Positions 1,895 to 63,199 of a DNA stretch of 64,000 nt are shown piece by piece; position 1 is the first letter of the stretch, and every line of letters starts with the position of its first letter. This DNA is from Parcubacteria group bacterium. Its GTDB lineage: Bacteria > Patescibacteriota > Minisyncoccia > JACPHC01. The DNA is taken from contig JACPHC010000003.1 in assembly GCA_016188775.1 (NCBI GenBank), positions 344-64,343 of the forward strand, given 5' to 3'. The notes below the pieces were generated by a model. The model ran no database searches and was not told the DNA's origin. It saw nothing but the letters and a program-made list of their open reading frames with translations. The position numbers were made by a program, and so were the translations under genes.

Positions 1895-2010
1895 AGATTG
1901 CTTCGCTTTCAGCTCGCAATGACAACCAGTTCAGCTCGCAATAATATAAAAATATTTAACTGTCATTGCGAGGCGATGGAATCGCCGAAGCAATCTCTCT
2001 TAATATATTC
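1895..2010. mobile_element. Rearranged fragments of MITE-like element B (GTCATTGCGAG terminal inverted repeats): two left-end copies and one right end
   Basis: GCTCGCAATGACA occurs twice, followed by TGTCATTGCGAGGCGATGGAATCGCCGAAGCAATC. These match the reverse complement of element ends at 62517-62611 and 63060-63199. Confidence 0.6.
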
Positions 2011-2031
2011 AACAATCTTACAAGCAAAACA

Positions 2032-4932
2032 ATGTTCAATAAACACAAAAACGCCGGTTTCGCGACCTTGCTGACAATAGTAATTATTTTAGGCCTTAGC
2101 CTGATTATCGTCAGCGGTTTTTCCGTTGCCAGTCTGTCTAATATCCGTGAATCCAAACGCGCTATTAACTCTTCTAAAACTCAATACGTCGCCGAGGCTG
2201 GGATCGAAGACAGTCTTTATCGGATTATAGCCGGGAAACAATACACGGCGACTAATAATTTAGCGGTTGGCGAAGGAACCGCCATCACTAACATTACCGA
2301 TGTTTCCGGCAATAAAATTATCACTTCTCTGGGCAACCGAGAAAATATTTTTAGAAAACTGGAAACAAAATTATCCGTTTCCACTCAAAGCGTTCAATTT
2401 TTCTACGGCGCTCAAATCGGCGAAGGGGGCGCCACTCTTAATAATGGCGCCGAAATCAATGGCAATGTCTATTCCAACGGCAATATTGTAATGACTGCCA
2501 ACGCTAAAATTAGCGGCGGCGCTATTGTGGCCGGCGGCATCGCCCCAACGCCCGATCAGCAATGGACCATTGGAAATTCCGATTTTCCTTTTGGACTGAC
2601 CACTGGCACAACCGCCATCACCGTTGATGAGCCGGGCGATATCGGCGACTATAACGCATTAACTTTGGGTTCTGACGGACTAGCCCGGATCAGCTATTAC
2701 GACGCGTCCAATAATGATCTTAAATACGTCCGTTGTACTTCAGCCGACTGTGTTTCAAAAAATATTACTACAATTGATTCTAGCGGCGATGTCGGATTTC
2801 GTTATACTTCCATTGCCATTGCCCTGGATGGATTGGCCCGAATCAGTTATTACAATAATACTAACGGCGACCTAAAATACGTTCAATGCGCCAATGACGA
2901 CTGCACGACAAAAAATATCGCCACTATTGATTCCAGTGGCGATGTCGGCCAATTCAACTCTCTGGCTTTAGGCACTGACGGATTGGCCCGAATCAGCTAT
3001 TACGCCGTCTCGGGCGGCAATCTTAAATTCCTTCACTGTTTGAACGATAACTGTTCATTGCGAAACACTTACACTGTTGACTCAATTGGCGATGTGGGCA
3101 AATACACTTCAATAGTCTTGGATCAAAACAACATCGCGATGATCAGTTATCTTGACGAAACCAATGATGATTTAAAATTTACCCAATGTTTAAATGTTGA
3201 TTGCTCCGCGGTCAATAATTACATCGTTGACTCAACCGGCGATGTCGGCCAATTCAAAACTTCCATCGCTCTTGGGTCTGACGAACTGGCCCGAATCAGT
3301 TATTATGACGACACGGGTAAGGATCTTAAATACGCTCAATGTTTAAACATCAGTTGCACGCTTAAAAATATAACTATTGTGGACTCGGCAGATCAAGTTG
3401 GAAAATACAGCTCGCTTCGACTTAATCCGGCTGACGGATTGGCCCGAATTTCTTATTATGACGCGACCAACGGCGCTGCTAAATTCGCCCGATGCTTAAA
3501 CGATTCTTGCTCCCAAAAAAATATTTCCACTCCGGATACCACCGGCAATGTCGGGCTTTACACTTCTTTGGCGATGGCTCAAGACGGCTTTGGCCAAATC
3601 AGTTATCGCGATGACACGAATCAGGATTTAAAATTTCTCAAATGCGCTGATCCGGATTGTAATCCGGGACAAACCACCGGCGACGCGGCTCAAAGTTTTA
3701 TTCCGTCAGCCACTAATCTTTTGCGTAAAATCAGCCTCAATATCAAAAAAATCGGCAGTCCGGGTGATGCCACCGTCAGGATAATGGCCAATAAATCTCC
3801 ACAAAATGTTCCGGATAAAGATAATACATTAACCACTGGCACGCTTTATTCTTCGATGGTCACTGGCAGTTATGGCTGGGTGGACGCGGCTTTTGTCACT
3901 AATCCGACTTTAAATATCGGACAAACTTATTGGATTGTTATTGACGCGGTTAATGATTCCAATAATTATTGGGTTTGGGCTAAAGATAATACCGACGCTT
4001 ATGTTTCCGGCACTGGTAAATTCGCTTTAAATTGGGATATTTCGCCCAATAACTGGTCAAGCGCGGGCGGCGATCTTGATTTTAAAACTTGGATGGCCGG
4101 AACTGTGACGAAAATAGATGGTGGCGTTGTTTCCGACGCGGCTCAAGCCAATACTTTAATCAACACCAAAATCTGCGGGGACGCTTATTTTCAAGCCATT
4201 GACGCTTTTTCGCTCAATTTCGTCAATAATCCGACCAATCCCGATTGCGCTAATCCTTTAACTCCGGGCATGTCTTTTCCCGGTTCCTCCGACCCTTCTC
4301 CGCTGGCTATGCCTATTTCCGACGGCCAAATTGACGCGTGGAAAACCGACGCCCAAGCCGGCGGCGTTATTGCCGGAGATTACAACGTGACTTCTGATGT
4401 CAGTCTTGGTCCGAAAAAAATCACCGGCAATCTTAATATGACCAGTAACAATAGAACTCTGACCGTCACCGGAACAATTTATATCGCGGGCAATATAGAT
4501 ATTGCCAACAATTCAAGAATCCGCTGCGACGCTTCTTACGGGATAAATTCATGCGTTGTTGTGGCGGACGGTTGGATTCATATTTCCAATAACGGACAAT
4601 TCGCCGGATCGGGTCAGGCCGGCAGTTATATTATGCTGCTGACGACCGCTCCCTGCAAAGGAACCGGTTTTTCCAATCCGCCAACGCCTTGCGCCTCCGC
4701 CCACCATGAAGCCAGCGTTGACCTTCATAACAGCGCCACCGGAATAATTTTTTACGCCAAAAACGGACTGATTAATCTTCATAACACAGTTAATGTCACG
4801 GAATTGTCGTCTTTTAAACTGGCGCTGGATAACAACGCCGTGATAAATTACGAACAAGGACTGCAAAACGCTCAGTTCACTTCCGGCCCAAGCGCGGGCT
4901 ATAAAATCGAATACTGGAAAGAAGTGCCTTAA
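2032..4932 (+). CDS. Large pilus-associated protein: pilin-like N-terminal helix, eight tandem ~44-aa Cys-containing repeats (propeller-like) and a C-terminal beta-helix-like region; putative tip adhesin
   Basis: MFNKHKNAGFATLLTIVIILGL is a pilin-like N-terminus. The repeat unit is GDVGxYTS(I/L)AL..DGLARISYYDxTNxDLKYxxCxNxxC..KNI..IDS, eight copies. The ORF-track start at 1966 (TTG) lies inside a MITE fragment, so the ATG at 2032 is preferred. Confidence 0.6.
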   Translation: MFNKHKNAGFATLLTIVIILGLSLIIVSGFSVASLSNIRESKRAINSSKTQYVAEAGIEDSLYRIIAGKQYTATNNLAVGEGTAITNITDVSGNKIITSLGNRENIFRKLETKLSVSTQSVQFFYGAQIGEGGATLNNGAEINGNVYSNGNIVMTANAKISGGAIVAGGIAPTPDQQWTIGNSDFPFGLTTGTTAITVDEPGDIGDYNALTLGSDGLARISYYDASNNDLKYVRCTSADCVSKNITTIDSSGDVGFRYTSIAIALDGLARISYYNNTNGDLKYVQCANDDCTTKNIATIDSSGDVGQFNSLALGTDGLARISYYAVSGGNLKFLHCLNDNCSLRNTYTVDSIGDVGKYTSIVLDQNNIAMISYLDETNDDLKFTQCLNVDCSAVNNYIVDSTGDVGQFKTSIALGSDELARISYYDDTGKDLKYAQCLNISCTLKNITIVDSADQVGKYSSLRLNPADGLARISYYDATNGAAKFARCLNDSCSQKNISTPDTTGNVGLYTSLAMAQDGFGQISYRDDTNQDLKFLKCADPDCNPGQTTGDAAQSFIPSATNLLRKISLNIKKIGSPGDATVRIMANKSPQNVPDKDNTLTTGTLYSSMVTGSYGWVDAAFVTNPTLNIGQTYWIVIDAVNDSNNYWVWAKDNTDAYVSGTGKFALNWDISPNNWSSAGGDLDFKTWMAGTVTKIDGGVVSDAAQANTLINTKICGDAYFQAIDAFSLNFVNNPTNPDCANPLTPGMSFPGSSDPSPLAMPISDGQIDAWKTDAQAGGVIAGDYNVTSDVSLGPKKITGNLNMTSNNRTLTVTGTIYIAGNIDIANNSRIRCDASYGINSCVVVADGWIHISNNGQFAGSGQAGSYIMLLTTAPCKGTGFSNPPTPCASAHHEASVDLHNSATGIIFYAKNGLINLHNTVNVTELSSFKLALDNNAVINYEQGLQNAQFTSGPSAGYKIEYWKEVP
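2631..3670 (+). repeat. Eight tandem 132-nt coding repeats inside the large pilus-associated gene
   Basis: Recurring GACGGATTGGCCCGAATCAG(C/T)TATTAC at 132-nt spacing (around 2679, 2830, 2983, 3284, 3436). Confidence 0.75.
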
Positions 4933-4950: not shown

Positions 4951-4973
4951 TTTACGAGGCTAAGCCTCGTAAA
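4951..4973. repeat. REP-like palindrome (copy 3; a half copy also at 4934-4946) overlapping the RAYT stop codon
   Basis: TTTACGAGGCTAAGCCTCGTAAA; encodes the last residues ...LRGLAS* of the RAYT on the minus strand. Confidence 0.8.
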
Positions 4974-5596
4974 TTTATTAAAGTGCTTTTTTTATACTGA
5001 ATCGGCCCGCCAAAAAATTTCATTAAAAATTTCCGTTGCGTGACTGAAGGGAAATTTTTTTTCCCAATATAATCACGAAAACTGCTCCATCGATAATTTT
5101 CCAAAAATTTCATCGCTTCTTTATAATTTTTAATTTCTTTATTTTTCCACTCTGGAGATTTCAAATCTAAAGGATTTAAATGGATATAATCAGGAATATG
5201 AAGAAATTGAGCGTCCTTTTCAACTAAAACTGCCTTAAAAGTTCCTTGAAATAAAGAACCGGTTCGTTCGTATTTTTGATTAAAATACATTGTATAACCT
5301 CCTCCTAATTTATGCATAAAATTTGCAATTCCGTTGTCCTGTCGCTGTCTTAAAAGTAAATGAAAATGATTTGGCATTAATGTAAAAACTAAAATTTCGA
5401 CTAATAATTTTCTTTTTTCAATTTTACGAGGCTTAGCCTCGTAATAAGAATTAAGCGCGGGCTTTTCGTCGTTAAATTCAAACAAGTCATGAATAAATCG
5501 AAAATAATCTTTATCATCTAAAAAAATATCGCGCTTTTCCACGCCACGATTATAAATATGATAAATTTTTCCTTCCGTGAATTTTATTTTTCTCAT
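4952..5596 (-). CDS. REP-associated tyrosine transposase (RAYT; IS200/IS605-like Y1 transposase)
   Basis: IYHIYNRGVEKRDIF ... LMPNHFHLLL (HuH motif) ... YTMYFNQKY (catalytic Tyr region). Flanked by REP palindromes. Confidence 0.75.
   Translation of the reverse strand: MRKIKFTEGKIYHIYNRGVEKRDIFLDDKDYFRFIHDLFEFNDEKPALNSYYEAKPRKIEKRKLLVEILVFTLMPNHFHLLLRQRQDNGIANFMHKLGGGYTMYFNQKYERTGSLFQGTFKAVLVEKDAQFLHIPDYIHLNPLDLKSPEWKNKEIKNYKEAMKFLENYRWSSFRDYIGKKNFPSVTQRKFLMKFFGGPIQYKKSTLINLRGLAS
5424..5444. repeat. REP-like palindrome (copy 4) located inside the RAYT CDS, in frame (encodes YYEAKPRK)
   Basis: TTACGAGGCTTAGCCTCGTAA within 4952..5596. Confidence 0.75.
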
Positions 5597-5670: not shown

Positions 5671-6753
5671 ATGTCATTTTTTTCTTTCAAAGAAACCGCT
5701 ATCGGCCTTGATATTTCCGATTATTCGATTAAAGCCGTTTATTTAAAAAATACGCGCCAAGGTAAAATTATTAAAAATCTTTTTGAACTAGCCATACCGC
5801 CGGGCTTAATTAATCAAGGAGAAATTCAAAATCAGGATAAACTTTTTGAAATTTTTAAAGAATTTTTAAAAAAAATTAAGGCCAGCCGAATTAAAACGCC
5901 CTATATCGTCTCTTCTTTGCCGGAAGAAAAATCATTTATCTCGGTTATTCAGCTCCCCAAAATGGAAGAGAAAGAAATAGGATCGGCTCTTGGTTTTGAA
6001 ATTGAGGCTAATGTTCCTTACGCCTTTCAAGAAGTTTATTTTGACTGGAAAAGCCTGCCTTCGGCCAGCCTCGATCATCTGGATATTCTGGTCGCGGCTT
6101 CGCCTAAAAAAATAGTTGATTCTTATTTTTCTCTTCTCAAGCGCCTAAAACTTATATCGGTCGCTTTTGAAATTGAATCGCAAGCCATTGCCAGAGCTTT
6201 AATCAAAAATGAAATCCAAGAAAAACCGATATTGCTTATTGATTTAGGCGCGACCCGCACCAGTTTCATTATTTTTTCCGGCGGCTCTATTCGTTTTACT
6301 TCTTCCATCCCCGTCTCGTCCAAAGATTTAACTTCAGCTATCGCTGACGTCCTAAAAATTCCGGAAAATGAAGCCGAAATTTTAAAAATCAAACACGGGC
6401 TTGATAAAAAAGGGACGGAAGGAATTAAAATATTTGACGCGATTCTGCCGCGCCTAACCGCTCTCATTGAAAAAATTCAAAATCTCATTATTTTTTACCA
6501 AAGCCACGCCAAACACGAACACGGCCGGATTTTGGAATTCGAAAATATTCTTCTTTCCGGCGGAGGCGCCAATCTGGCCGGCCTTTCTCAATATTTAAAA
6601 GAGGAATTAAAACGAAAAATTGGATTAGGCAACCCTTTCGTTAATCTGGCAAAATCGCCAACAAAATTTTTATCTGATCTGGCGCCTGATAAGGCCGTCG
6701 CCTTCACCACCGCCATTGGCCTGGCTTTAAGAAACATTGAAACGGAAATTTAA
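5671..6753 (+). CDS. pilM: Type IV pilus assembly protein PilM (actin-like ATPase)
   Basis: N-terminus AIGLDISDYSIKAVYL, a typical PilM start, plus an actin-fold sugar-kinase-like pattern. Confidence 0.8.
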   Translation: MSFFSFKETAIGLDISDYSIKAVYLKNTRQGKIIKNLFELAIPPGLINQGEIQNQDKLFEIFKEFLKKIKASRIKTPYIVSSLPEEKSFISVIQLPKMEEKEIGSALGFEIEANVPYAFQEVYFDWKSLPSASLDHLDILVAASPKKIVDSYFSLLKRLKLISVAFEIESQAIARALIKNEIQEKPILLIDLGATRTSFIIFSGGSIRFTSSIPVSSKDLTSAIADVLKIPENEAEILKIKHGLDKKGTEGIKIFDAILPRLTALIEKIQNLIIFYQSHAKHEHGRILEFENILLSGGGANLAGLSQYLKEELKRKIGLGNPFVNLAKSPTKFLSDLAPDKAVAFTTAIGLALRNIETEI

Positions 6754-6757
6754 GTAT

Positions 6758-6921
6758 AGACCTTTTACAAAATAATTTTTCCTACTCTAATTCTCAAATT
6801 TCGGCTGTAAATTATTCAGAGCTCCTCAACGTATTTTAATCAAATACGCTTCGTCGCTCTTCATAATTTTCGCTCGAAATTTGCGAATTTCGTTACGAAA
6901 AAATTATTTCGCAAAAAGTCT
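6758..6921 (+). mobile_element. MITE-like element A, copy 1 (terminal inverted repeats AGACCTTTTACAAAATAAT / ATTATTTCGCAAAAAGTCT); the right end abuts the pilN ATG
   Basis: About 165 nt, bounded by ~19-bp imperfect inverted repeats. Homologous to 7460-7612 and to the reverse complement of 36810-37005. Lacks the 34-nt internal hairpin present in the other copies. Confidence 0.7.
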
Positions 6922-7456
6922 TATGCCAATTAATCTTTTGCCTCCGGACCAAAAAGAGGCGTTAAAATGGACGAGAATTTTTCATATCGTCAACTATTAT
7001 AGTTTCGGACTTGGAGCTCTTTTTATTATTTTGGCCGCTGTTTTTTATCTGATAAATTTTTACGGCAATTTTGAATTAAAACTGCTGGAAAAACTACTGG
7101 AAGCGGAAAAAGGCGGATCGAAATGGGCAAAAATCGTTCAACAAGAAAAAGAGATCGAGAAAGGGCGAACTCTTTTGAGCGCCTATGAAAAAAATCAAAA
7201 AGAAATTAAATCAATTCTTCCCTTCCTCGATAAAATTTCAGCGATTACGCCTCAAGGAGTATTTCTGACTTCGCTTTCTCTGGACGTGGGCGGACAGGCG
7301 AGTATTGCTGGCTACTCGCCCGACCGAAGCCGGGTCAAAGACATAGAAAACGCCCTCAAAAACGACCCGACGTTTCAAAATATCAGTTCTCCGGCCTCAA
7401 ACTTTTTAAAACCCATTGATATCAATTTTAAATTTTCTTTTACGATAAAAAAATAG
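6922..7456 (+). CDS. pilN: Type IV pilus assembly protein PilN
   Basis: MPINLLPP (the INLLP hallmark of PilN) followed by a single transmembrane segment. The track start at 6881 (TTG) falls inside the MITE; ATG 6922 is preferred. Confidence 0.7.
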
Positions 7457-7459
7457 CAT

Positions 7460-7612
7460 AGACCTCTTGCAAAATAATCTTTTCTACTCCAATTCTCAAA
7501 TTTCGGGTGTCAACCCTACGGGTGATCTCCCGTAGGGAGACAAATTATTCAGAGCTTCTCAACGTATTTTGATTAAAATACGCTTCGTCGCTCTTCATAA
7601 TTTTCGCAAAAA
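7460..7612 (+). mobile_element. MITE-like element A, copy 2 (right end internally deleted); contains the CCCTACGGG-TGATCT-CCCGTAGGG hairpin
   Basis: Left inverted repeat AGACCTCTTGCAAAATAAT at 7460. The 9-bp stem hairpin sits at 7514-7537. The right end is truncated after ...TTTTCGCAAAAA. Confidence 0.65.
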
Positions 7613-7758
7613 TTTTAATCTCCGGCCTATCCGCTCTATTCGTTGTAATAATTTTATTTTTTCTGGCGATTTTTCCTTTATCCAAAAAAATCAAGGAAAC
7701 GTCAAATAAAATATCCGAAACGAGATATGAAATTTTAAAAATCGCCAAGAAAAAACAA

Positions 7759-8145
7759 ATGAGCCGAAAAATAGAAGATCAATTCGAAAAAACTCAAAAA
7801 GATCTGCCGGAAATTAAAAACGCCTTATTCGATCCGGAAAAATTAGTGGATCTGGTGGTGACCTTGGAAGACATAGCGGCCGAAACATCAACCCAGCTTA
7901 ATATCGGCGAATCAAACACGCAGCAAAAATTCATCAATTTCTCCGTCAATCTCTGGGGAAATTTTACTAATTTTTACCGTTTTATAAAAAAAATAGAAAA
8001 TCTGCCGTATCTCGATCAAATTGACACTATCGCGATTAAAAAACTGGAACCGCAGGAAATTGCCGTTCGCAATCAAAACGGAGGCCCGATTCTCGGATCG
8101 GGCGATATTGGAGCGGTTATGAAATTTAAAATATTTACTCAATGA
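7759..8145 (+). CDS. pilO: PilO-like pilus assembly protein (periplasmic domain). The N-terminal transmembrane segment is encoded in frame upstream, from 7573, without a canonical start codon.
   Basis: Position in the pilM-pilN-pilO order. The upstream in-frame translation gives ...ILISGLSALFVVIILFFLAIFPL (a TM helix) with no ATG, GTG or TTG between the stop at 7570 and 7759. Confidence 0.5.
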   Translation: MSRKIEDQFEKTQKDLPEIKNALFDPEKLVDLVVTLEDIAAETSTQLNIGESNTQQKFINFSVNLWGNFTNFYRFIKKIENLPYLDQIDTIAIKKLEPQEIAVRNQNGGPILGSGDIGAVMKFKIFTQ

Positions 8146-8456
8146 TAAAAATCAATCTCCAATCAATTTCTAAAAAAATAAGAGAGGCTCAAAAAACGGC
8201 GCCGGAATTTTTTGAACGCCGCGGTCTTTTTATTCTCACTCTTATTTTTATTTTAATTATTTTCTGGCCGGCTTATATATTTTATTTTAAAATCTGGTTA
8301 ACCTTGAACGAACCTATTTTTATTGAAGAAAAAATAACGGAACTGCCGAAGACTTCTCTTGAATCAGCTCTGCGAAATATTGAAAACAGAGCCCAAATTT
8401 TTAAAAGCAACGAACAAACTGAAATAATTTCAGCGAATAAAAATCCCTTTCGTTGA
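8142..8456 (+). CDS. Small membrane protein in the pil operon (possible PilP analogue)
   Basis: A 4-nt overlap with pilO (ATGA) and one transmembrane helix, LFILTLIFILIIFWPAYIF. Confidence 0.4.
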   Translation: MIKINLQSISKKIREAQKTAPEFFERRGLFILTLIFILIIFWPAYIFYFKIWLTLNEPIFIEEKITELPKTSLESALRNIENRAQIFKSNEQTEIISANKNPFR

Positions 8457-8563
8457 TTTTTTCGCGTTTTTACACTAATATTTTCGTAGCTCAATGGATA
8501 GCCTTCGGCCCTATAGGTCGTAGGCCCGGAGGAAGCGGTTCGAATAATTTCTATAATGTCATT

Positions 8564-8635
8564 CTCCCCGTAGTTCAACGGATAGAACGAAGGACTTCTA
8601 ATCCTTAGATCGAGGTTCGATTCCTCGCGGGGAGA
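8564..8635 (+). tRNA. tRNA-Arg (anticodon TCT)
   Basis: Cloverleaf folded by hand. Acceptor CTCCCCG/CGGGGAG, D stem GTTC/GAAC, anticodon stem AAGGA/TCCTT with loop CTTCTAA, T stem CGAGG/CCTCG with loop TTCGATT. Confidence 0.8.
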
Positions 8636-8643
8636 CTTGCCTT

Positions 8644-8716
8644 GGAGACTATGGTGTAGTAGCAGCACAGCAGTTTGTGGCACTGCTAGCACGGGTGCAA
8701 ATCCCGTTAGTCTCCC
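8644..8716 (+). tRNA. tRNA-His (anticodon GTG) with the extra G-1:C73 base pair
   Basis: An 8-bp acceptor stem GGAGACTA/TAGTCTCC, anticodon stem GCAGT/ACTGC with loop TTGTGGC, T stem ACGGG/CCCGT. Confidence 0.8.
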
Positions 8717-32433: not shown

Positions 32434-32473
32434 TTTTACATATTTTCAAACGATCGTTTAAAAATATGTAAAA
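32434..32473. repeat. 40-bp palindrome with CGATCG core (TTTTACATATTTTCAAACGATCGTTTAAAAATATGTAAAA)
   Basis: Near-identical to the copy at 44299-44338. Confidence 0.75.
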
Positions 32474-34938: not shown

Positions 34939-35273
34939 ACCAAAAATAAAAAATACTCATAAAAACTGCCGACTCGCAATAACTTCGTTAATTTAATAAA
35001 AACAATAAATAAATTTTACCCACTTTTACGCTATCGCTGAAATATAGGTAAATTTACAAAAAAACTTGACAAAATTTTTTATAGTAATATAATAAAAATA
35101 TATAAAAAAGTTAATAAGATTTAGGCCTGCGAAAAGCGGGAACCTAAAAAGGAAAGGGCAAAGCTCAAACAAGAGCTCCAGTCTATCCCTAAAGGGCGAC
35201 GGAGTTATTGTTTGAGCTTTTTTGTATAATTAGACCTTTAAAAACAAAGAAACAACTAGAAAGGAGGAGGCAA

Positions 35274-35757: not shown

Positions 35758-35801
35758 AAATTTACACCTTTACGGACGATCGTCCGTAAAGGTGTAAATT
35801 T
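35758..35801. repeat. 44-bp perfect palindrome with CGATCG core (AAATTTACACCTTTACGGACGATCGTCCGTAAAGGTGTAAATTT)
   Basis: Shares the central ACGATCGT with the 32434 and 44299 palindromes; the arms differ. Confidence 0.7.
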
Positions 35802-36809: not shown

Positions 36810-37005
36810 AAGACCTTTTGCGAAATAATTTTTCGTAACGAAATTCGCAAATTTCGAGCGAAAATTATGAAGAGCGACGAAGCGTATTTTAATTAAAATA
36901 CGTTGAGGAGCTCTGAATAATTTGTCTCCCTACGGGAGATCACCCGTAGGGTTGACACCCGAAATTTGAGAATTGGAGTAGAAAAGATTATTTTGCAAGA
37001 GGTCT
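36810..37005 (-). mobile_element. MITE-like element A, copy 3 (full length, with the internal hairpin). Its right end abuts the ksgA ATG; its left inverted repeat contributes the uvrD/pcrA stop codon.
   Basis: The reverse complement matches 7460-7612 and 6758-6921. Terminal inverted repeats are AGACCTCTTGCAAAATAAT / ATTATTTCGCAAAAGGTCT. Confidence 0.7.
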
Positions 37006-44298: not shown

Positions 44299-44338
44299 TT
44301 CTACATATTTTCAAACGATCGTTTGAAAATATGTAGAA
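44299..44338. repeat. 40-bp perfect palindrome with CGATCG core (TTCTACATATTTTCAAACGATCGTTTGAAAATATGTAGAA)
   Basis: Second copy of the 32434 element. Confidence 0.75.
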
Positions 44339-49266: not shown

Positions 49267-50394
49267 CTATAAAACTACTAATCCCGTCGGCGCGGAAGGC
49301 GGCGTGGTGTCGGAAGTGGTCAAGAGATACCCATTTGCATTTACATTGCCATTCTCATCAATCACATATAAGTAAGTGCTAATAAAATCACTAAAAGAAC
49401 CCTGATTCAAAGTTATGATAATAGATGTATTTGACCAAGCAGACGGGATTTGGATTTCGCACTTATTACGAATGGTAGAAGTTGCACCAGCACAAACTTC
49501 AACTCTTGCCCAAGAGTTATCAATATATAAATCATCCCAATAAGTACTAACAGCTTGTCCCGTGGGGACATTAACTAATCCATATCCAAAATGAGGAGTT
49601 GATAAATATGTACCTGTTTGGGATATTGTAACACCAGTTTTACTTCTTCTAACGACAGTCCCATCACTATGATAAGCAACCCAATTTGCAACTCCATCTG
49701 AAGAATTTGCATCTGTTGAGTCTCGGAACTCTATTTCAAACCGTACCCACTGTGCAGGTCTTATCCAATCATCCCAAGTAGAAGGAATCCATTCTCCGCC
49801 TGTAGAGCCGGTTCTAAACTCATAATAGTTACCACTTGAGCCTATTGTGCCATCAGCTTCCCACCAAGATTGTAAAGCTAACACCGGTTCATCTGCATGT
49901 GCAGGGCCTGAACCAATATGAATTAATTTAATCTGCCAATCTACTAAACTTTGTAAACTTACCATACTCACATAAAGATACCCAGAAATGTATTTTATCC
50001 CTGTAGTCGTCCAAGCATTTAATTTGTAAAAACCATTATTACCTGGACCAAAACCAGTACCTGGATACACCATCCTATCTACTACTGACAAACTTGAACG
50101 ACTATTTCTTTGATTTTTATTTGTGAATTTTGCATCCGCCTGATCATCCCTATTAGTCCAATAACCAGTTGATTCTACATCATTACCATTTGTACCATTT
50201 TCAAAATTCTCCCATTTCAATGGCGCAGCAGTTGCCTTTGTCCCAAACCCACTCCCCGCAATTGTCACTATCCCGTTATGAACAAATGCGCCGCCTGTAT
50301 TCGTGATCTGCACCGCCGCGCTTGCAAAACCCACTCCCCCAAAAAGCCCGAGGGAAATTATGGCGAAGTAAATTAGGTTTTTTGTTTTGCGCAT
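49267..50394 (-). CDS. Secreted surface protein, paralogue 1 (conserved 5' and 3' boxes, variable core; ends ...TTPPSAPTGLVVL*)
   Basis: Signal peptide MRKTKNLIYFAIISLGLFGGVGFASA. The N-terminal ~55 aa and C-terminal ~45 aa are near-identical to 51414..52481. GC is higher than the local average. Confidence 0.6.
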   Translation of the reverse strand: MRKTKNLIYFAIISLGLFGGVGFASAAVQITNTGGAFVHNGIVTIAGSGFGTKATAAPLKWENFENGTNGNDVESTGYWTNRDDQADAKFTNKNQRNSRSSLSVVDRMVYPGTGFGPGNNGFYKLNAWTTTGIKYISGYLYVSMVSLQSLVDWQIKLIHIGSGPAHADEPVLALQSWWEADGTIGSSGNYYEFRTGSTGGEWIPSTWDDWIRPAQWVRFEIEFRDSTDANSSDGVANWVAYHSDGTVVRRSKTGVTISQTGTYLSTPHFGYGLVNVPTGQAVSTYWDDLYIDNSWARVEVCAGATSTIRNKCEIQIPSAWSNTSIIITLNQGSFSDFISTYLYVIDENGNVNANGYLLTTSDTTPPSAPTGLVVL

Positions 50395-50523
50395 GTTTTT
50401 AGTTTACCACCAATCCCGTCGGCGCCGCGGGCGGGGTGGTGTCGGGCAGTTTTTCGCGCGTTTTAATATATTATTTTGCTATTCCAAATTTTTTCGGATT
50501 TTCTAAAACACCTTTAACTCCTC

Positions 50524-50883
50524 TTAAGAAAACATCAAAATCAACCAATTTATCATTGATGATTTTATAATTCTGTAACCAGCCATCTCTTGTAGCGCGG
50601 TATCGGCAAAGTGTTTGTCAACAATGTGATATTCTCCGATTTTTCTTGCCATCTCTTTGTATTCCGAAGCCTGGGCGCCGGGAATTCTCGATAATATGTG
50701 GGCGCTGATATGGAACACTCCTTCCAATGCTCGATGGAGGTGGAATTGAGCTAATTTAAAACCAACTCCTTTTTCAAATTCTTCAAACGACAATTGCGCG
50801 AGCTTCTCAAGTTCTTTAATTTCTCCTTGAATTCCGTTTATTCTTTTTAGAATAATGTCTCTATCAAGAAAAAGTTTTGTCAT
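50524..50883 (-). CDS. hepT: HepT-like (DUF86) toxin of a HepT/MntA toxin-antitoxin pair
   Basis: Size and a C-terminal RxxxxHxY-like region (ARKIGEYHIV); 4-nt overlap with the upstream MntA gene. Confidence 0.6.
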   Translation of the reverse strand: MTKLFLDRDIILKRINGIQGEIKELEKLAQLSFEEFEKGVGFKLAQFHLHRALEGVFHISAHILSRIPGAQASEYKEMARKIGEYHIVDKHFADTALQEMAGYRIIKSSMINWLILMFS

Positions 50884-51290
50884 ATTCTTTGAAGTATGGC
50901 TTTATGGAACTCTGATCGCAATGGAGCAAAATCGGCATATTCCTCCATTGTCGTTTCCAAGAAATTTGAGATTATTTTCTGATCTCCAAGATAGAGCAAA
51001 ACGCCGTCTTGGGCGATGCGATGCTTAATTTGTAAATCAGCTTGTTCAACAAAGACAATATCAATATTGATTAGGGCGTTAATTTGTTTAGACAGTATTT
51101 CATAAAGCTTATTATAGATTTTTTTTCTTTCCGCGGCGTCTCTTATCATTTTTTTATTTTTAACCAAAACGGCAAAGTCAAAATCGCTGGTTTTATTTGC
51201 CGTTCCCTGGGCTTGTGAACCAAACAAAAAAATGCCGGCAATGCCAAGTTCTTCCATTTTTTCTTTTTGAAATTTAAATTTCATAAACAT
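50880..51290 (-). CDS. mntA: MntA-like minimal nucleotidyltransferase (antitoxin)
   Basis: GS-x9-13-DxD motif: LFGSQAQGTANKTSDFDFAV. Confidence 0.75.
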   Translation of the reverse strand: MFMKFKFQKEKMEELGIAGIFLFGSQAQGTANKTSDFDFAVLVKNKKMIRDAAERKKIYNKLYEILSKQINALINIDIVFVEQADLQIKHRIAQDGVLLYLGDQKIISNFLETTMEEYADFAPLRSEFHKAILQRI

Positions 51291-51317
51291 AATATACCAT
51301 AGTAATTATTACCAGTT

Positions 51318-51413
51318 CAACTTTAATTTACCGCCAATCCCGCCCGCCTTCATTACATTACGGCCCGCTTCGCCTAAGCTCCAGCGAGGCGAGCGAGGCC
51401 AGTCGGCCTTCAA
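51318..51413. repeat. GC-rich stacked scars of the surface-protein 3' module (near-identical to 52515-52600)
   Basis: AATCCCGCCCGCCTTCA ... TTACGGCCCGCTTCGCCTAAGCTCCAGCGAGGCGAGCGAGGCCAGTCGGCCT is shared by both loci. Confidence 0.7.
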
Positions 51414-52481
51414 TTAATTTACGGCGAGGCCCGTCGGCGCGGAAGGCGGGGCGGTGTCGGGAGTGGTCAAGAGATACCCATTTGCATTTACATTGCCATT
51501 CGCATCAAATACGTAGAGGTAGGCATTATTTTGAATTTCTAGATTTCCTTGGTTTATAGTTATTGTAATGGAGGTATCTGACCAGGCTAATGGAATCTGA
51601 ACCTCCCGAATAGTGGAGGCCGCCAAAGTTGGAGCATTCCCAATCTCAGCCCTAGCCCACGTGTTATCTATATATATGTTATCCGCATATGTAATATCAT
51701 CAGGTCTACCCGTAGCACCACCTGCCGCGGCTGCACCTACCCATCCTCCAATATGGGGTTCCTGAATTCCTGGGGCATTTGTGTCGGCAAAACGAAGCCC
51801 AGTTCCGCTTGATATAAGGACATTATCCATATATATATACGCAGAACCATTAGCTCCATATACCCCATTATTATAATCTATATCTAATATAACCTTAAAA
51901 TCGTACCATTTGTCCTTTAACGCAGAAAAATTTCCCCATGAGGTTTCGGGCGACAGATTACCTAAATATATTTTATTAAGCTCATGTCTTGCGTCTAACG
52001 CAAAATTCGGGGGCGCGCCATCCCAATTATCGCCCCACATGAATATTTTTTCGTTTCCAGTGCCTCCGCTTGTGTCAAAAGTAAAATTAGGATCCCATTT
52101 CCATTTAAAAAAGGCTATTGTATGGTTGAGCGTTTGCCCCACAGGTTTTGATGCCCATCTTGTTCCATAGTTTGCGAATGATTCAAATTGCAGGAATCTT
52201 GTTGAGACTGCGCTTATTTGGTTAGGGCCTGTTGCGTAAACATTGTTACCAATAACACTATTATAATTAGCTGCGACCGTGCCTGTTTCAGCATCATCCC
52301 ACCATAGCGGCGCAGCTATTGCCTTTGTCCCAAACCCGCTCCCCGCAATTGTCACTATCCCGTTATGAACAAATGCGCCGCCTGTATTCGTGATCTGCGC
52401 CGCCGCGCTTGCAAAACCCGCTCCCCCGAAAAGCCCGAGGGAAATTATGGCGAGACAAATTATGTTTTTTGATTTGTTCAT
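51414..52481 (-). CDS. Secreted surface protein, paralogue 2 (ends ...DTAPPSAPTGLAVN*)
   Basis: Signal peptide MNKSKNIICLAIISLGLFGGAGFASA. Termini are shared with paralogue 1; the core is divergent. Confidence 0.6.
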   Translation of the reverse strand: MNKSKNIICLAIISLGLFGGAGFASAAAQITNTGGAFVHNGIVTIAGSGFGTKAIAAPLWWDDAETGTVAANYNSVIGNNVYATGPNQISAVSTRFLQFESFANYGTRWASKPVGQTLNHTIAFFKWKWDPNFTFDTSGGTGNEKIFMWGDNWDGAPPNFALDARHELNKIYLGNLSPETSWGNFSALKDKWYDFKVILDIDYNNGVYGANGSAYIYMDNVLISSGTGLRFADTNAPGIQEPHIGGWVGAAAAGGATGRPDDITYADNIYIDNTWARAEIGNAPTLAASTIREVQIPLAWSDTSITITINQGNLEIQNNAYLYVFDANGNVNANGYLLTTPDTAPPSAPTGLAVN

Positions 52482-52514
52482 AAATTTGACCCTAAACTAA
52501 TGACCGCTTTCTAC

Positions 52515-52600
52515 TGTACCGCTAATCCCGCCCGCCTTCAATTAATTTACGGCCCGCTTCGCCTAAGCTCCAGCGAGGCGAGCGAGGCCAGTCGGCCTGC
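52515..52600. repeat. GC-rich 3' module scar (copy of 51318-51413)
   Basis: About 75 nt near-identical to the 51340-51413 copy. Confidence 0.7.
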
Positions 52601-52604
52601 AATC

Positions 52605-52907
52605 TTAATATATATATGGGTTGTATATTTCTACGTCTGATTGAAGGTTTATGATTCCCGAGACACCGAAAATTACTATCCTTGCCTCTGAAGCAGTCAC
52701 GGCCTCTCTGAAACTTCCAGGCCCATTATCATTTAAGTTTGTAACTCTAATAACTTGTCCTCCCCTGCCGCCCACGCTATTTGCTCCAAAACCTTCAGCC
52801 CCTGGAAAAGCAACTAACGCAAATGAACTTTTGGAAATTCCAAAGACGCCAAGCAGGATAATGATATTAATAATTAAAATTTTGCTTTTTAATTTCATAT
52901 TTCCCAC
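52605..52907 (-). pseudogene. N-terminal fragment (100 aa) of a pectate-lyase-like secreted protein
   Basis: Signal peptide plus AFPGAEGFGANSVGGRGGQVIRVTNLNDNGPGSFREAV (the pectate lyase N-terminal motif), then a premature stop followed by the module scar. Confidence 0.5.
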
Positions 52908-54103
52908 GCTTCAATAATATTGTGTCTGCCAACGTTTTTCATTTTAACGGATAAAGAAACAATTTTAAAATTAAAATCTTTATAATTTTCCATAAAAATT
53001 TTATAATTCTTTTCTTTAAATTGCAGCGGCTGGGCTTTAACTTCTATCGCTTCCTTTTCTTTAATAATAAAATCAATTTCATTTTTCTGGACTGTGCGCC
53101 AAAATTTTATATCATTTGAATCATATTTATCAAGAAGCTGGCGGAAAACAGCGTTTTCAAGAAGTATGCCCTTATCTTCCCTTGTGTCATAAGGAGAAAA
53201 ATTATCAACCAAAAAATTTCTTAATCCCAAGTCGTAAAAATAAACCTTGGGCATCTTGGTTAGCTCTTTTCTTACATTTTTATAAAAAGGGTTTATCAAT
53301 TTTATATGAAATGATTTTTGCATTACATATAAATAATGATCTACGGCGGTTTTTGAAACTCCCAAAGTATTAGCTAATTCCGAAGCATTAACGAGACTGC
53401 CAACCTGAACGGCAAAAATCTTGAATAATTTATAAAAAATTTCTTCTTGCCGAATATGGGCCTCAAAAATATCTTTTTTGATATACGAATAAACTATGTC
53501 TCTCAAAATATCTTGCTTTTCCGATAAAGGAGCTAAAACCACCCGCGGATAGCCGCCGTAAATAATATACTCTCTATAATATAGCTCAATTTTTTCTTTT
53601 TCAGACAATGTTAATTTTTCAAAATCTTTTTTGGATAATTCTTCTTCCTCTTTAAAGCGCAGAAATTCCCTGAAAGAAACGGTGAAAACATTGAATATCT
53701 TTTTTCTTCCGGCCAGCGAATCTTTAAATTTTTTATCCAAATAAAACGCGGATGAGCCGGAAGCAATAATTTTAATAGCGCCGGCATACTCGTCATAAAA
53801 ATATTTTAAAAAATTTGAAGGATTTTTGAGATATTGAATTTCATCAATAAAAATAAAGTTTTTCTTTTTTAAATCAACGGGGAAAATTTTAAAAAGATTT
53901 TTAGGCGATTCATTAAGCAGAATCAGATAATCAGGATCTTCTAAATTCAAAAAATAGGTTTTTTTATTCTCTTGTTCAAGAATGCTTTGAAGTTGTTTTA
54001 AAATTGTAGTTTTTCCCGCTTGTCTTGAGCCAATAAAAATAAGGATTTCCGGATCCTCAAGGTATTTTCGGGCTTTTAATGTAATATCTCTGATAATAGT
54101 CAT
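52895..54103 (-). CDS. AAA+ ATPase with C-terminal DUF4143-type domain (COG1373-like)
   Basis: Walker A GSRQAGKTT and Walker B IFIDEIQ; 402 aa. Confidence 0.7.
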   Translation of the reverse strand: MTIIRDITLKARKYLEDPEILIFIGSRQAGKTTILKQLQSILEQENKKTYFLNLEDPDYLILLNESPKNLFKIFPVDLKKKNFIFIDEIQYLKNPSNFLKYFYDEYAGAIKIIASGSSAFYLDKKFKDSLAGRKKIFNVFTVSFREFLRFKEEEELSKKDFEKLTLSEKEKIELYYREYIIYGGYPRVVLAPLSEKQDILRDIVYSYIKKDIFEAHIRQEEIFYKLFKIFAVQVGSLVNASELANTLGVSKTAVDHYLYVMQKSFHIKLINPFYKNVRKELTKMPKVYFYDLGLRNFLVDNFSPYDTREDKGILLENAVFRQLLDKYDSNDIKFWRTVQKNEIDFIIKEKEAIEVKAQPLQFKEKNYKIFMENYKDFNFKIVSLSVKMKNVGRHNIIEAWEI

Positions 54104-54144
54104 AAATACATTTTATCCGTTATTTTGTATTTGTCAAATTATTA

Positions 54145-54195
54145 TTTCTATTGTACCACTAATCCCGCCCGCCTGAGAGACCCTTTCGCCTGCAA
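54145..54195. repeat. GC-rich 3' module scar (variant copy)
   Basis: CTAATCCCGCCCGCCTGAGAGACCCTTTCGCCTGCAATTAATTTACGG. Confidence 0.6.
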
Positions 54196-55962
54196 TTAAT
54201 TTACGGCTAGGCCAGTCGGCGCCGCGGGCGGGGTAGTGTCCTGCTGTGCTCCTGACACATATTCATACGCGCCAATATCCCAAGCCAATCCTTGTGGGCG
54301 AGTTACCTTGTCGAAGTCTACGGCGATAGAGAGGCCGTAAATATTTTGGAAGGTTTGGTAAACCGAGGAAACAAGGCCCGCATTTACAGCGGAACTTCCC
54401 GATTGGAGATGGAAATCATTTGCCGATGAGTTTACAAATAACGGATCGGCATTCAAAGAATTCGCGCCCTTACTGGTTGCCGACTGGAAAGTGGCAAGCG
54501 AGGTATAGGTATTCGCGCCCCAAATCGTCTTAAAACCACCTCCAAAAAGAAAGTTATCAACCGTTGAGTTTGCGGCGTTTATCGATGAAGCAAGAAATAT
54601 ATCGCTTCCCGCTCCCAGTCCCGCGATAATGTTATTAGCCATGAAAAAAGAGCCGCTGTCGGGGGAATTCACGCCAGCGTCCACATCATAAAATGTATTG
54701 TTGATGACATAGCGGTTCCGCCCTCCCCAGGTGGTCATGGCCGCTCCGTTTGAATAAGCGTTATTGGGATCGAAAGCCGGACTGTGAATGCCATGAATCA
54801 CGTTGCCGATAAAATACAAATTCTGACCAAAGCCATCTCCATCCGGCCCGCTTGTGCTGGCGCCGCCGATACCCGTGTGGCAATCATACAAATTGTTATA
54901 GAGAAACCACACCCGTTCCGGACCGTACTGATACCCGGCGCAATTGCCCCCGGACGACGATGGGCTTGGCACAATTCCGTAGGCGGTATTTCGCGAGAAA
55001 ACCACATCGGTTGCCTGCTTCGTCCAAAATCCGGTCTGTTTATGGTGATGAGATGTATTTCCCCCAAAATAAATATGATGAGTTCGCGACGTAACTGAAT
55101 CAGAATCCGCCTTGCTGCCGCCGTTGACTTGAATGCCGTCGCCGCTGCAGCGCGCAAGTTCATTATCGAGCACCCAAACATTGTCAGCATGCCCAATTCC
55201 GACACAATGAACATCTTGGTCGATCGTTGTGGCGATGTCGCCATTGTCATGGATATAATTACTGTACACCAAAATATTCGAAATTCGGTTAGTATCAGAG
55301 CTTGCGATCTCGACTCCGCCGCCCACGAGGTTCCCATGCGCGTCGCTAAAACGAAGCGCGAGGTGATCTGACGGCGATACGATAACGAAACTCCCGGACG
55401 AGCCTCCGGAAAGGTCGCCGTCCGCATCGGCAAATTCAAGATTTTCGAAGATAGCATAAGTTCCCTTGACTTGCATGTTTGCAATAATTTTTGGCTTTTC
55501 TGAATCGCTAACCCCCCGGATAAAGACCGGACTTGTCGAGGTTCCGTTCGCGGTAATGATATTAGGATTGGTATAGCTGCATATCCCTGAGCAATCCCGA
55601 TATATATTTCCATGCATTTCGACAACGGATCCTTCCGGAATGGGTTTAGGCGGACTTTTTCGCGGTAAGGCCGGTGTTCCATAGAGGTTATTTGAATCAG
55701 TAGCGCCGGCGCATGAAGTGCAGACGAAATAAAAGCCGGGGGTGGGCAATGTCCATGGATTCGGGGCTACGGGCGCGGTTTCTGCGATGCCAAACGGCGG
55801 ATTTGGAATGCCGACAGGAGGAATATACGCGTGAACCGTACTTCCCAAAACGATGATGCTTGCCAAGACTAGGAACAACGAAGCGAGCCAAAGCGATATT
55901 TGTTTTATAAGCCAACGGAAAGGAAAATAATTTAAATATGAAATATTTGCTTTTTTAAACAT
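54196..55962 (-). CDS. Secreted right-handed beta-helix (pectate-lyase-fold) protein ending in the shared ...DTTPPAAPTGLAVN* module
   Basis: Signal/TM segment, NxDxxH-rich beta-helix repeats (NGDIATTIDQDVHCVGIGHADNVWVLDNE...) and WDIGAYEY near the C-terminus. High GC. Confidence 0.65.
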   Translation of the reverse strand: MFKKANISYLNYFPFRWLIKQISLWLASLFLVLASIIVLGSTVHAYIPPVGIPNPPFGIAETAPVAPNPWTLPTPGFYFVCTSCAGATDSNNLYGTPALPRKSPPKPIPEGSVVEMHGNIYRDCSGICSYTNPNIITANGTSTSPVFIRGVSDSEKPKIIANMQVKGTYAIFENLEFADADGDLSGGSSGSFVIVSPSDHLALRFSDAHGNLVGGGVEIASSDTNRISNILVYSNYIHDNGDIATTIDQDVHCVGIGHADNVWVLDNELARCSGDGIQVNGGSKADSDSVTSRTHHIYFGGNTSHHHKQTGFWTKQATDVVFSRNTAYGIVPSPSSSGGNCAGYQYGPERVWFLYNNLYDCHTGIGGASTSGPDGDGFGQNLYFIGNVIHGIHSPAFDPNNAYSNGAAMTTWGGRNRYVINNTFYDVDAGVNSPDSGSFFMANNIIAGLGAGSDIFLASSINAANSTVDNFLFGGGFKTIWGANTYTSLATFQSATSKGANSLNADPLFVNSSANDFHLQSGSSAVNAGLVSSVYQTFQNIYGLSIAVDFDKVTRPQGLAWDIGAYEYVSGAQQDTTPPAAPTGLAVN

Positions 55963-55984
55963 TAGTAATTTTTTATATTAGTTT

Positions 55985-56040
55985 CAAATTTTAATTTACC
56001 GCCAATCCAGTCGGCGTGGCGGGCGGAGTGGTGTCAGGGG
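55985..56040. repeat. 3' module scar upstream of the beta-helix protein gene
   Basis: TTAATTTACCGCCAATCCAGTCGGCGTGGCGGGCGGAGTGGTGTCAGG. Confidence 0.6.
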
Positions 56041-62516: not shown

Positions 62517-62650
62517 GTCATTGCGAGCAAAGCGAAGCAATCTTAAAAAGAATCGCGTAAATTTTTAAATTAAGAGATCGCTTCGGCCATTCCATCGCCT
62601 CGCAATGACGGTTAAAAGATTGTTTTTAACGATTCCATCGCCTCGCGCTG
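62517..62650. mobile_element. MITE-like element B, copy 1 (inverted repeats GTCATTGCGAG / CTCGCAATGAC) plus an extra partial right end
   Basis: TGTCATTGCGAGCAAAGCGAAGCAATC ... GATCGCTTCGGCCATTCCATCGCCTCGCAATGACGG, then GATTCCATCGCCTCGCGCTG. Confidence 0.65.
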
Positions 62651-63059: not shown

Positions 63060-63199
63060 TGTCATTGCGAGCTGAAAGCGAAGCAATTTCAAAAAAAATC
63101 GCGTAAATTTTTAAATTAAGAGATCGCTTCGGCCATTCCATCTCCTCGCAATGACGGTTAAAAGATTGTTTTAGCGATTCCATCGCCCCGCAATGACGA
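63060..63199. mobile_element. MITE-like element B, copy 2 (about 90% identical to copy 1, with a duplicated right end)
   Basis: TGTCATTGCGAGCTGAAAGCGAAGCAAT ... CTCCTCGCAATGACGG ... GATTCCATCGCCCCGCAATGACGAG. Confidence 0.65.

Follow-up and report, generated by a model that had tools for sequence, protein, structure and literature searches.

In the PilMNOP alignment subcomplex of type IVa pili the genes follow the order pilM-pilN-pilO, and PilO, for which structures are available from Pseudomonas aeruginosa (2RJZ, 5UVR) and Myxococcus xanthus (3JC8 chain O), has a short basic N-terminus, one transmembrane helix, a long coiled-coil helix and a C-terminal ferredoxin-like core. PilO proteins pair with PilN as a heterodimer, and pilus assembly requires them. 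Two further kinds of described case bear on a pilO gene that seems to lack a start codon. In Escherichia coli near-cognate codons initiate translation at about 1–2% of AUG, and infC and pcnB are the sole confirmed natural AUU starts (bioRxiv 10.1101/063800). Chen et al. (2020, Genome Res 30:315; PMC7111523) described local assembly errors without any supporting read, which were especially prominent with IDBA-UD, reported 13 of them in one genome of the candidate phyla radiation (CPR), and noted that such errors lead to wrong gene sequences in databases. Here we examine the pilO gene in a stretch of 64,000 nucleotides (nt) from a Parcubacteria group bacterium (assembly GCA_016188775.1, contig JACPHC010000003.1, positions 344 to 64,343; hereafter the window, with position 1 its first letter). 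As assembled, this gene has no canonical start and follows a truncated copy of a short palindromic repeat, element A. Our analyses show that pilO in this organism is an ordinary PilO of 183 amino acids (aa) with a canonical ATG start and that the start-less gene is an appearance only, not real biology of the organism. The appearance stems from the loss of 62 nt, probably through a local assembly or scaffolding error at the repeat.

Within the window, several claims of an earlier note, made from the letters of this DNA alone, were borne out. Followed backwards from ATG 7759, the frame stays open as far as 7573; none of its codons from there to 7758 is ATG, GTG or TTG; the element A copy at 7460-7607 is without its right end; and the upstream stretch encodes a predicted transmembrane segment, ILISGLSALFVVIILFFLA. 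The nearest upstream stop is TGA 7570-7572, and the segment has a mean Kyte-Doolittle value of 2.92. The open frame begins LKYASSLFIIFAKILISGLSALFVVIILFFLAIFPLSKKIKE... and up to the annotated Met reads LKYASSLFIIFAKILISGLSALFVVIILFFLAIFPLSKKIKETSNKISETRYEILKIAKKKQ-M..., with near-cognate codons in frame at ATA 7597, ATT 7600, ATT 7612, ATC 7618, ATA 7648, ATT 7651, CTG 7663 and others. The annotated 128-aa product reaches a Kyte-Doolittle maximum of 0.82 and holds no segment comparable to the upstream one. The features of the locus that the argument needs are the following, all on the forward strand.

7460 to 7607: element A copy 2 as assembled, comprising the left arm, a nested hairpin, the centre and the beginning of the right arm, and ending ...CATAATTTTCGC.
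7573 to 7607: the element part of the open frame, which reads LKYASSLFIIFA and is not pilO coding sequence; in contigs L003 to L005, described below, the ATG is downstream of it.
7607 to 7608: the deletion junction, at which the window is short by exactly 62 nt, TCGAAATTTGCGAATTTCGTTACGAGAAATTATTTCACAAAAGGTTTT + ATGAGTGAAAAACA.
7608 to 8145: the pilO coding sequence that is retained, from the third base of codon 5 to the stop codon TGA 8143-8145.
7759 to 8145: the annotated 128-aa open reading frame (ORF) HYV52_01020, whose start is the internal Met56 of PilO.

Independent contigs were found by exact look-up, in Logan, of the 104-aa ORF that lies downstream of pilO (8142-8456). The look-up returned three contigs, from the runs SRR12113424 (one contig, recorded in two samples), SRR12113420 and SRR12113421. 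From 7608 onwards these contigs, L003, L004 and L005, follow the window without a single mismatch for as far as each extends, about 0.9–1.0 kb, and they disagree with it only at the 7607|7608 junction. Upstream of 7608 they read ...ATAATTTTCGC-TCGAAATTTGCGAATTTCGTTACGAGAAATTATTTCACAAAAGGTTTT-ATG AGT GAA AAA CA-AAAAATTTTAATC..., diverging from the ...CATAATTTTCGC of the window. Of the missing 62 nt, 48 form the distal end of the element's right arm and the other 14 are the start of pilO (ATG AGT GAA AAA CA). With them restored, pilO opens with an ATG in frame, five codons before K6 in all three independent assemblies, and encodes 183 aa that begin MSEKQKILISG (MSEKQKILISGLSALF..., MSEKQKILISGLSALFVVIILFFLAIFPLSKK...). 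The Logan contigs begin precisely at the first 31-mer that is unique to copy 2 and have no branch through 7608; because their starts match the graph break expected at the repeat with k=31, they are not chimeras. Every recorded contig with the exact downstream ORF, that is, three contigs from four samples, carries the intact allele, and the truncation of element A copy 2 is specific to the assembly of the window. The headline of the earlier note, that pilO lacks a canonical start, consequently fails as a property of the organism, and it does so whether the loss is an error or a real allele. The note had left three options, a non-canonical start, inactivation of the gene and an indel error: extra sequence that creates an in-frame ATG, the outcome that the note itself had named as a refutation, is indeed present in the independent assemblies of three read sets, as 62 bases. 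The indel option is thereby supported, and a start at ATT or ATC is not needed.

The homologues of PilO support the restored N-terminus. In an exhaustive HMMER search with the extended frame, 937 relatives were found at E<=0.001, whose alignments start at query residues ~8-25, corresponding to hit residues ~2-18; since homologues align along the upstream stretch, it is not a chance open frame. A word-indexed protein search with the extended ORF matched only the window's own 128-aa protein. All 149 of the homologues retrieved are 166–219 aa long (median 186) and have a hydrophobic 19-mer within their first 45 residues, which upholds the view of the earlier note that PilO needs a transmembrane N-terminus; against this set, the 128-aa HYV52_01020 is the sole length outlier. 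The nearest homologue, P0002 (53% identity, 183 aa), begins MTVKQKILVSG and aligns collinearly from its Met1. It is encoded on a contig (L006) from an unrelated run, SRR22387819, where the DNA at its start is ATGACTGTTAAGCAAAAAATTTTAGTTTCCGG (with context, tttaGGAGGgtaaatcaaATGACTGTTAAGCAAAAAATTTTAGTTTCCGG), with the ATG behind a GGAGG ribosome-binding site and no element upstream. As its N-terminus matches that of the restored protein, the 14 restored nt are authentic pilO sequence. Judged from these sequences, the N-terminus M-x-x-K-Q-K-I-L is ancestral to pilO and does not come from the element.

The identification of the protein as PilO draws on profiles, predicted structure and gene order. 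The Pfam family PilO (PF04350) matches the extended frame weakly (17.9 bits against a gathering cut-off of 22, E 0.0035), with the match starting 25 residues before the annotated Met, and among 14 family members that were aligned it matches eight at E<=0.01 (best 1.4e-8). A family profile compared with the PDB had PilO structures as its top three matches (2rjz, 3jc8_O and 5uvr, E 0.005-0.012). An AlphaFold2 model (pLDDT, the predicted local distance difference test, 95.2) shows an unbroken helix spanning residues 2-72 and then an alpha/beta core, and Foldseek ranked 3jc8_O, 2rjz_A/B and 5uvr first among PDB entries for this model (E 4e-6 to 2e-4). The best hydrophobic 19-mer of the restored protein covers residues 7-25, and the annotated Met, Met56, falls in the middle of the predicted helix. 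Thus, as modelled, the restored protein shares with type IVa PilO the short basic N-terminus, the single transmembrane helix, the long coiled-coil helix and a C-terminal ferredoxin-like core like that of solved PilO, whereas the 128-aa product would be without the N-terminal transmembrane helix and coiled coil. The gene also follows directly after pilM and pilN, in the order of the type IVa cluster. The locus differs from the described systems in that the protein is highly divergent from solved PilO (11–16% identity), being a member of a ~185-aa protein family whose best homologues we examined, and in that pilP and pilQ were not recognised downstream, where the next ORF (104 aa) is without a Pfam match. 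HYV52_01020 as deposited in GenBank is a truncated gene call and should be the 183-aa PilO.

How the 62 nt came to be missing is a separate matter, and a local assembly or scaffolding error is the explanation we favour as the probable one. Under this explanation, 62 nt would have been dropped between 7607 and 7608, within an element that occurs three times on the contig; the loss would have removed the start codon and joined element sequence in frame to codon 6; and the gene caller would then have resorted to the internal Met56 at ATG 7759. The stretch 7573-7607 is open in frame with pilO because the deletion joined element sequence to pilO, and the part of the open frame that lies 5' of 7608 amounts to 12 codons of element sequence. 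The junction sits in a three-copy repeat and conflicts with independent assemblies of the same population, in samples of which the 62 nt and the ATG are present. In the probable source study each filter was assembled with MEGAHIT, after which the scaffolding function of IDBA-UD was applied (PMC7906910); the text of that study is silent on local error correction with ra2. The case resembles those of Chen et al. (PMC7111523) in its position at a repeat, its conflict with independent assemblies, the wrong protein-coding gene that it has placed in a public record and the probable use of the IDBA-UD scaffolder. We infer that the deletion has no read support in the window.

Several points weigh against an assembly error. 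The absence of read support at 7607|7608 has been deduced and not seen in reads, unlike the errors of Chen et al., which are defined by the lack of any read that supports the consensus perfectly, and the loss is a clean one of 62 nt with no Ns. The link between the runs, BioProject PRJNA640378 and the metagenome-assembled genome (MAG) is a probable one, backed by the use of SRR12113421 in a study drawing on PRJNA640378; the supplements of PMC7906910 contained no SRR numbers. Microhomology is absent at the junction, and k-mers of 12 nt or longer that span it do not recur elsewhere in the window; with no shared k-mer it is not a simple de Bruijn shortcut, and a pure k-mer assembler would need reads across the junction, so that a scaffolding step or a real minor allele remain as its sources. 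The samples also show some microdiversity, with a G/A difference in the right arm between L003 and L005 on one side and L004 on the other. Neither a k-mer shortcut through the ...TTTCGCAAAAA end of copy 1 nor a deletion mediated by short direct repeats would suffice as the cause, as the word in common has just 11 nt and the junction lacks microhomology.

The alternative that survives best is a real allele in the sample of the MAG, which would have arisen by imprecise deletion within the palindromic element and would leave pilO null or weakly expressed from a near-cognate codon. We regard it as possible but rather unlikely. Long hairpins are prone to deletion, and that of element A is long (−68.5 kcal/mol for the restored copy 2); the junction sequence is unique and would be hard to obtain by k-mer collapse alone; the samples show the microdiversity noted above; and the frame remains open through the junction. 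Against this, the three Logan contigs that carry the exact downstream gene are all intact and unbranched at 7608, the 12 element codons upstream could easily be open by chance, and loss of the start would disable a conserved pilus component while pilM and pilN are intact. In addition, the contig products expected of a deletion allele were not found: exact look-up in Logan gave no record of those running 7579-8145 or 7609-8145 (deletion or mixed allele), a weak negative as contig starts are uncertain and there was no positive control, and none of the 128-aa ORF, likewise weak for want of a positive control. Exact look-up of the pilN products from TTG 6881 and ATG 6923 also gave no record, again a weak negative, and a scan of Joint Genome Institute (JGI) metagenomes with 33 nt of pilO that the two alleles share found nothing. 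Should the deletion allele be real, the full-length product could be translated only from AUU, AUC or AUA, with a severe knock-down of the structural partner of PilN. That a sub-population does carry a partial deletion of the element at the start of pilO, with PilO and type IV pili switched off or held at about 1–2%, we consider less likely still. Were it true, an episymbiotic lineage of Parcubacteria would have on/off variation of its pilus driven by a miniature inverted-repeat transposable element (MITE), and the related elements described below, which lie preferentially on TATG starts across Patescibacteria, could be mutable leaders of the genes that they adjoin.

It is very improbable that pilO normally starts at a non-canonical codon (ATT 7612, ATC 7618, ATA 7597 or ATT 7600) in the manner of infC and pcnB of E. 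coli. The window as given does resemble those genes in offering only AUU, AUC and AUA starts for the full-length product, and in-frame ATT, ATC and ATA codons stand just before the transmembrane segment. Near-cognate codons do initiate in E. coli, and start selection might be relaxed here since most genes of the window are without a Shine-Dalgarno motif. Such a motif was found at about four of the 35 ORFs of at least 200 aa in the window, most starts following A/T-rich leaders, and initiation in this organism appears to be largely Shine-Dalgarno-independent. However, the AUU starts of infC and pcnB are in the real genome and are experimentally confirmed, whereas the real pilO sequence has an AUG: three independent assemblies of the same population show the ATG in frame, five codons before K6. 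The orthologue on L006 has an ATG after GGAGG at the homologous position, so a non-canonical start is not conserved, and an output of 1–2% would serve poorly for the structural partner of PilN. Least credible of all is that the true product is a soluble PilO lacking the membrane anchor, encoded by the 128-aa ORF from ATG 7759, although this is the only form of pilO with a canonical start in the window and the one annotated in GenBank, as homology reaches at least 50 residues upstream of the annotated Met, every one of the 149 homologues has the N-terminal hydrophobic segment, and this Met would lie midway in a confidently predicted helix. Read-through of TGA under an alternative code, joining the upstream frame, was rejected, because TGA 8143-8145 ends pilO, where it overlaps the next ATG, and there is no start upstream.

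The start-less pilO itself carries little biological weight, as the gene has a normal ATG and what remains is a 62-nt hole in a public MAG contig. The case shows, however, that a repeat-associated local assembly error can mimic a non-canonical start or a pseudogene, and that comparison of independent assemblies of the same read sets is a cheap way to resolve such cases.

Element A is present in three copies in the window. In addition to copy 2, given above, its features are the following.

6758 to 6921, forward strand: copy 1 of element A, 164 nt long, placed exactly between the stop codon of pilM and the start codon of pilN, with TAT flanks at 6755-6757 and 6922-6924.
36811 to 37005, reverse strand: copy 3 of element A, a full-length copy of 195 nt that includes the nested hairpin and whose right end abuts the ATG of rsmA/ksgA at 36809-36807.
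7511 to 7541, forward strand: the nested hairpin, 31 nt, G+C-rich, CAACCCTACGGGTGATCTCCCGTAGGGAGAC, part of the left arm in copies 2 and 3 but not in copy 1.

Copy 1 folds into a single long hairpin (−45.2 kcal/mol, z −6.7). Completed by the 62 nt of L003 to L005, copy 2 is 196 nt long, near-identical to copy 3 and ends ...AAAAGGTTTT-ATG like the other copies; it too folds as a single long hairpin, with a z-score of −7.3. The nested hairpin may be an insertion within element A or the marker of a subfamily. Copies 1 and 3 end ...AAAA(A/G)GTCT-T-ATG on the start codons of pilN (6923) and of rsmA (36809, reverse strand), the rRNA adenine dimethylase gene (Pfam RrnaAD, E 2e-55), and an A(A/G)AGG at the end of the element lies four nt 5' of the ATG. 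The earlier note had taken the element to supply the ATG in these other copies, a statement that has to be corrected: the ATG is the gene's own, with its AT within the TAT flank. The orthologue without the element has the same N-terminus. In pilN, for instance, the AT of ATG 6923 lies in the right TAT flank of copy 1. An Rfam scan of 6600-8700 at E<=1 found only downstream tRNAs and left element A unmatched, and a promoter scan gave nothing better inside the element than weak 9/12 matches, which are not conserved between copies. The idea that the hairpin brings a split ribosome-binding site to the ATG was rejected, as there is no Shine-Dalgarno sequence just upstream of the copies and the genome rarely uses one.

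The terminal repeat of element A, AGACCTYTTRCRAAATAATYTTT, was found at 27 loci (L007-L033) in GTDB species representatives. The hosts include Doudnabacteria, Magasanikiibacteriota, Falkowbacteria, Sungbacteria, Saccharibacteria and unclassified Patescibacteria, and near-identical copies of 183 nt, more than 12 in number, occur in a single MAG that is labelled Gammaproteobacteria. Twenty-six copies are complete; they are 116–205 nt long and non-coding, with AGACCTYTTRCRAAATAATYTTT as a terminal inverted repeat at both ends and variable, self-complementary interiors. Their flanks are 3-bp direct repeats, mostly TAT/TAT, which are probably target-site duplications: the occurrence of AGA/AGA (L009:1482) and CTA/CTA (L031:3374) implies that the flanks are duplications and not part of the element. 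Element A thus combines terminal inverted repeats, small size, absence of coding sequence, an apparent target-site duplication and dispersed multi-copy occurrence, and on its sequence it looks like a widespread MITE-like family of Patescibacteria. Our literature search did not find MITE-like elements described in CPR bacteria.

The right flank of element A is TATG in 14 of the 26 complete copies, compared with 15% of all TAT sites (p ~5e-6), and eight of the 26 abut the ATG of an ORF of at least 60 codons, compared with 3.7% (p ~3e-6). Read by eye, the abutted genes seem to code for IF-2, a PilC/GspF-like protein, a sugar transferase and a carbamoyltransferase. Since the AT of the start codon is within the duplicated TAT, the element would sit on the start codon and not supply it. 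In its terminal inverted repeats, short direct flanks, whole-element hairpin and multiple copies, element A is like the Correia elements of Neisseria and the ERIC elements of enterobacteria, and like them it is intergenic within operons and presumably co-transcribed. It differs from Correia elements, which have a TA flank, in its 3-bp, mostly TAT flank, and from both in its strong tendency to adjoin TATG starts directly and in its Patescibacteria hosts. A cognate transposase was not identified, and no search aimed at one was made; the Y1 transposase at 4952-5596 is linked to another hairpin repeat. A MITE-like family that lies on TATG starts far above chance may deserve separate study.

The neighbours of pilO in the pil cluster, all on the forward strand, are the following.

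5671 to 6753: pilM, 360 aa, first gene of pilM-pilN-pilO (Pfam PilM_2, E 9e-43).
6923 to 7456: pilN, 177 aa from ATG 6923 (Pfam PilN, E 3e-08).
8142 to 8456: the downstream ORF, 104 aa, which includes a hydrophobic segment, overlaps the stop codon of pilO at its start (ATGA) and has no Pfam match.

The Logan contigs that carry pilM (L001, L002) end about 85 nt past its stop, within element A copy 1. Directly 3' of the pil cluster are two tRNA genes, at 8564-8635 and from 8645 onwards (Rfam tRNA, 70.6 and 29.2 bits), and just 5' of pilM, on the reverse strand, is the ORF of an IS200-like Y1 tyrosine transposase (4952-5596; Pfam Y1_Tnp, E 4e-9). A perfect hairpin of 21 nt, TTACGAGGCT(T/A)AGCCTCGTAA, has six copies in the window, at 1278, 1863, 4948, 5420, 5602 and 35957. 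Copies of it stand at both ends of the transposase ORF and one lies within, an arrangement that resembles repetitive extragenic palindromic (REP) elements with an associated transposase. On the 5' side of the transposase is an ORF of 988 aa (1966-4932, forward strand) with a hydrophobic N-terminus (…NAGFATLLTIVIILGL…) that looks pilin- or PilX-like and with at least five tandem repeats of ~150 nt carrying the motif GLARISYYD..DLKY..C. It matched no Pfam family at E<=0.001, and its product may be a large pilus-associated surface protein.

Other repeats occur elsewhere on the contig. Several of 60–200 nt (families D2, D6, D11, D12 and D16) lie in 49283-56027 and suggest tandemly duplicated genes, and a direct repeat of 98 nt with 96% identity is found at 62529-62626 and 63075-63172, 546 nt apart; the repeats at 49–56 kb and 62–63 kb are further sites where the contig could hold repeat-related assembly errors. 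Perfect or near-perfect palindromes of 40 nt (TTTTACATATTTTCAAACGATCGTTTAAAAATATGTAAAA) are present in four copies, at 32434-32473, 35014-35053, 35760-35799 and 44299-44338.

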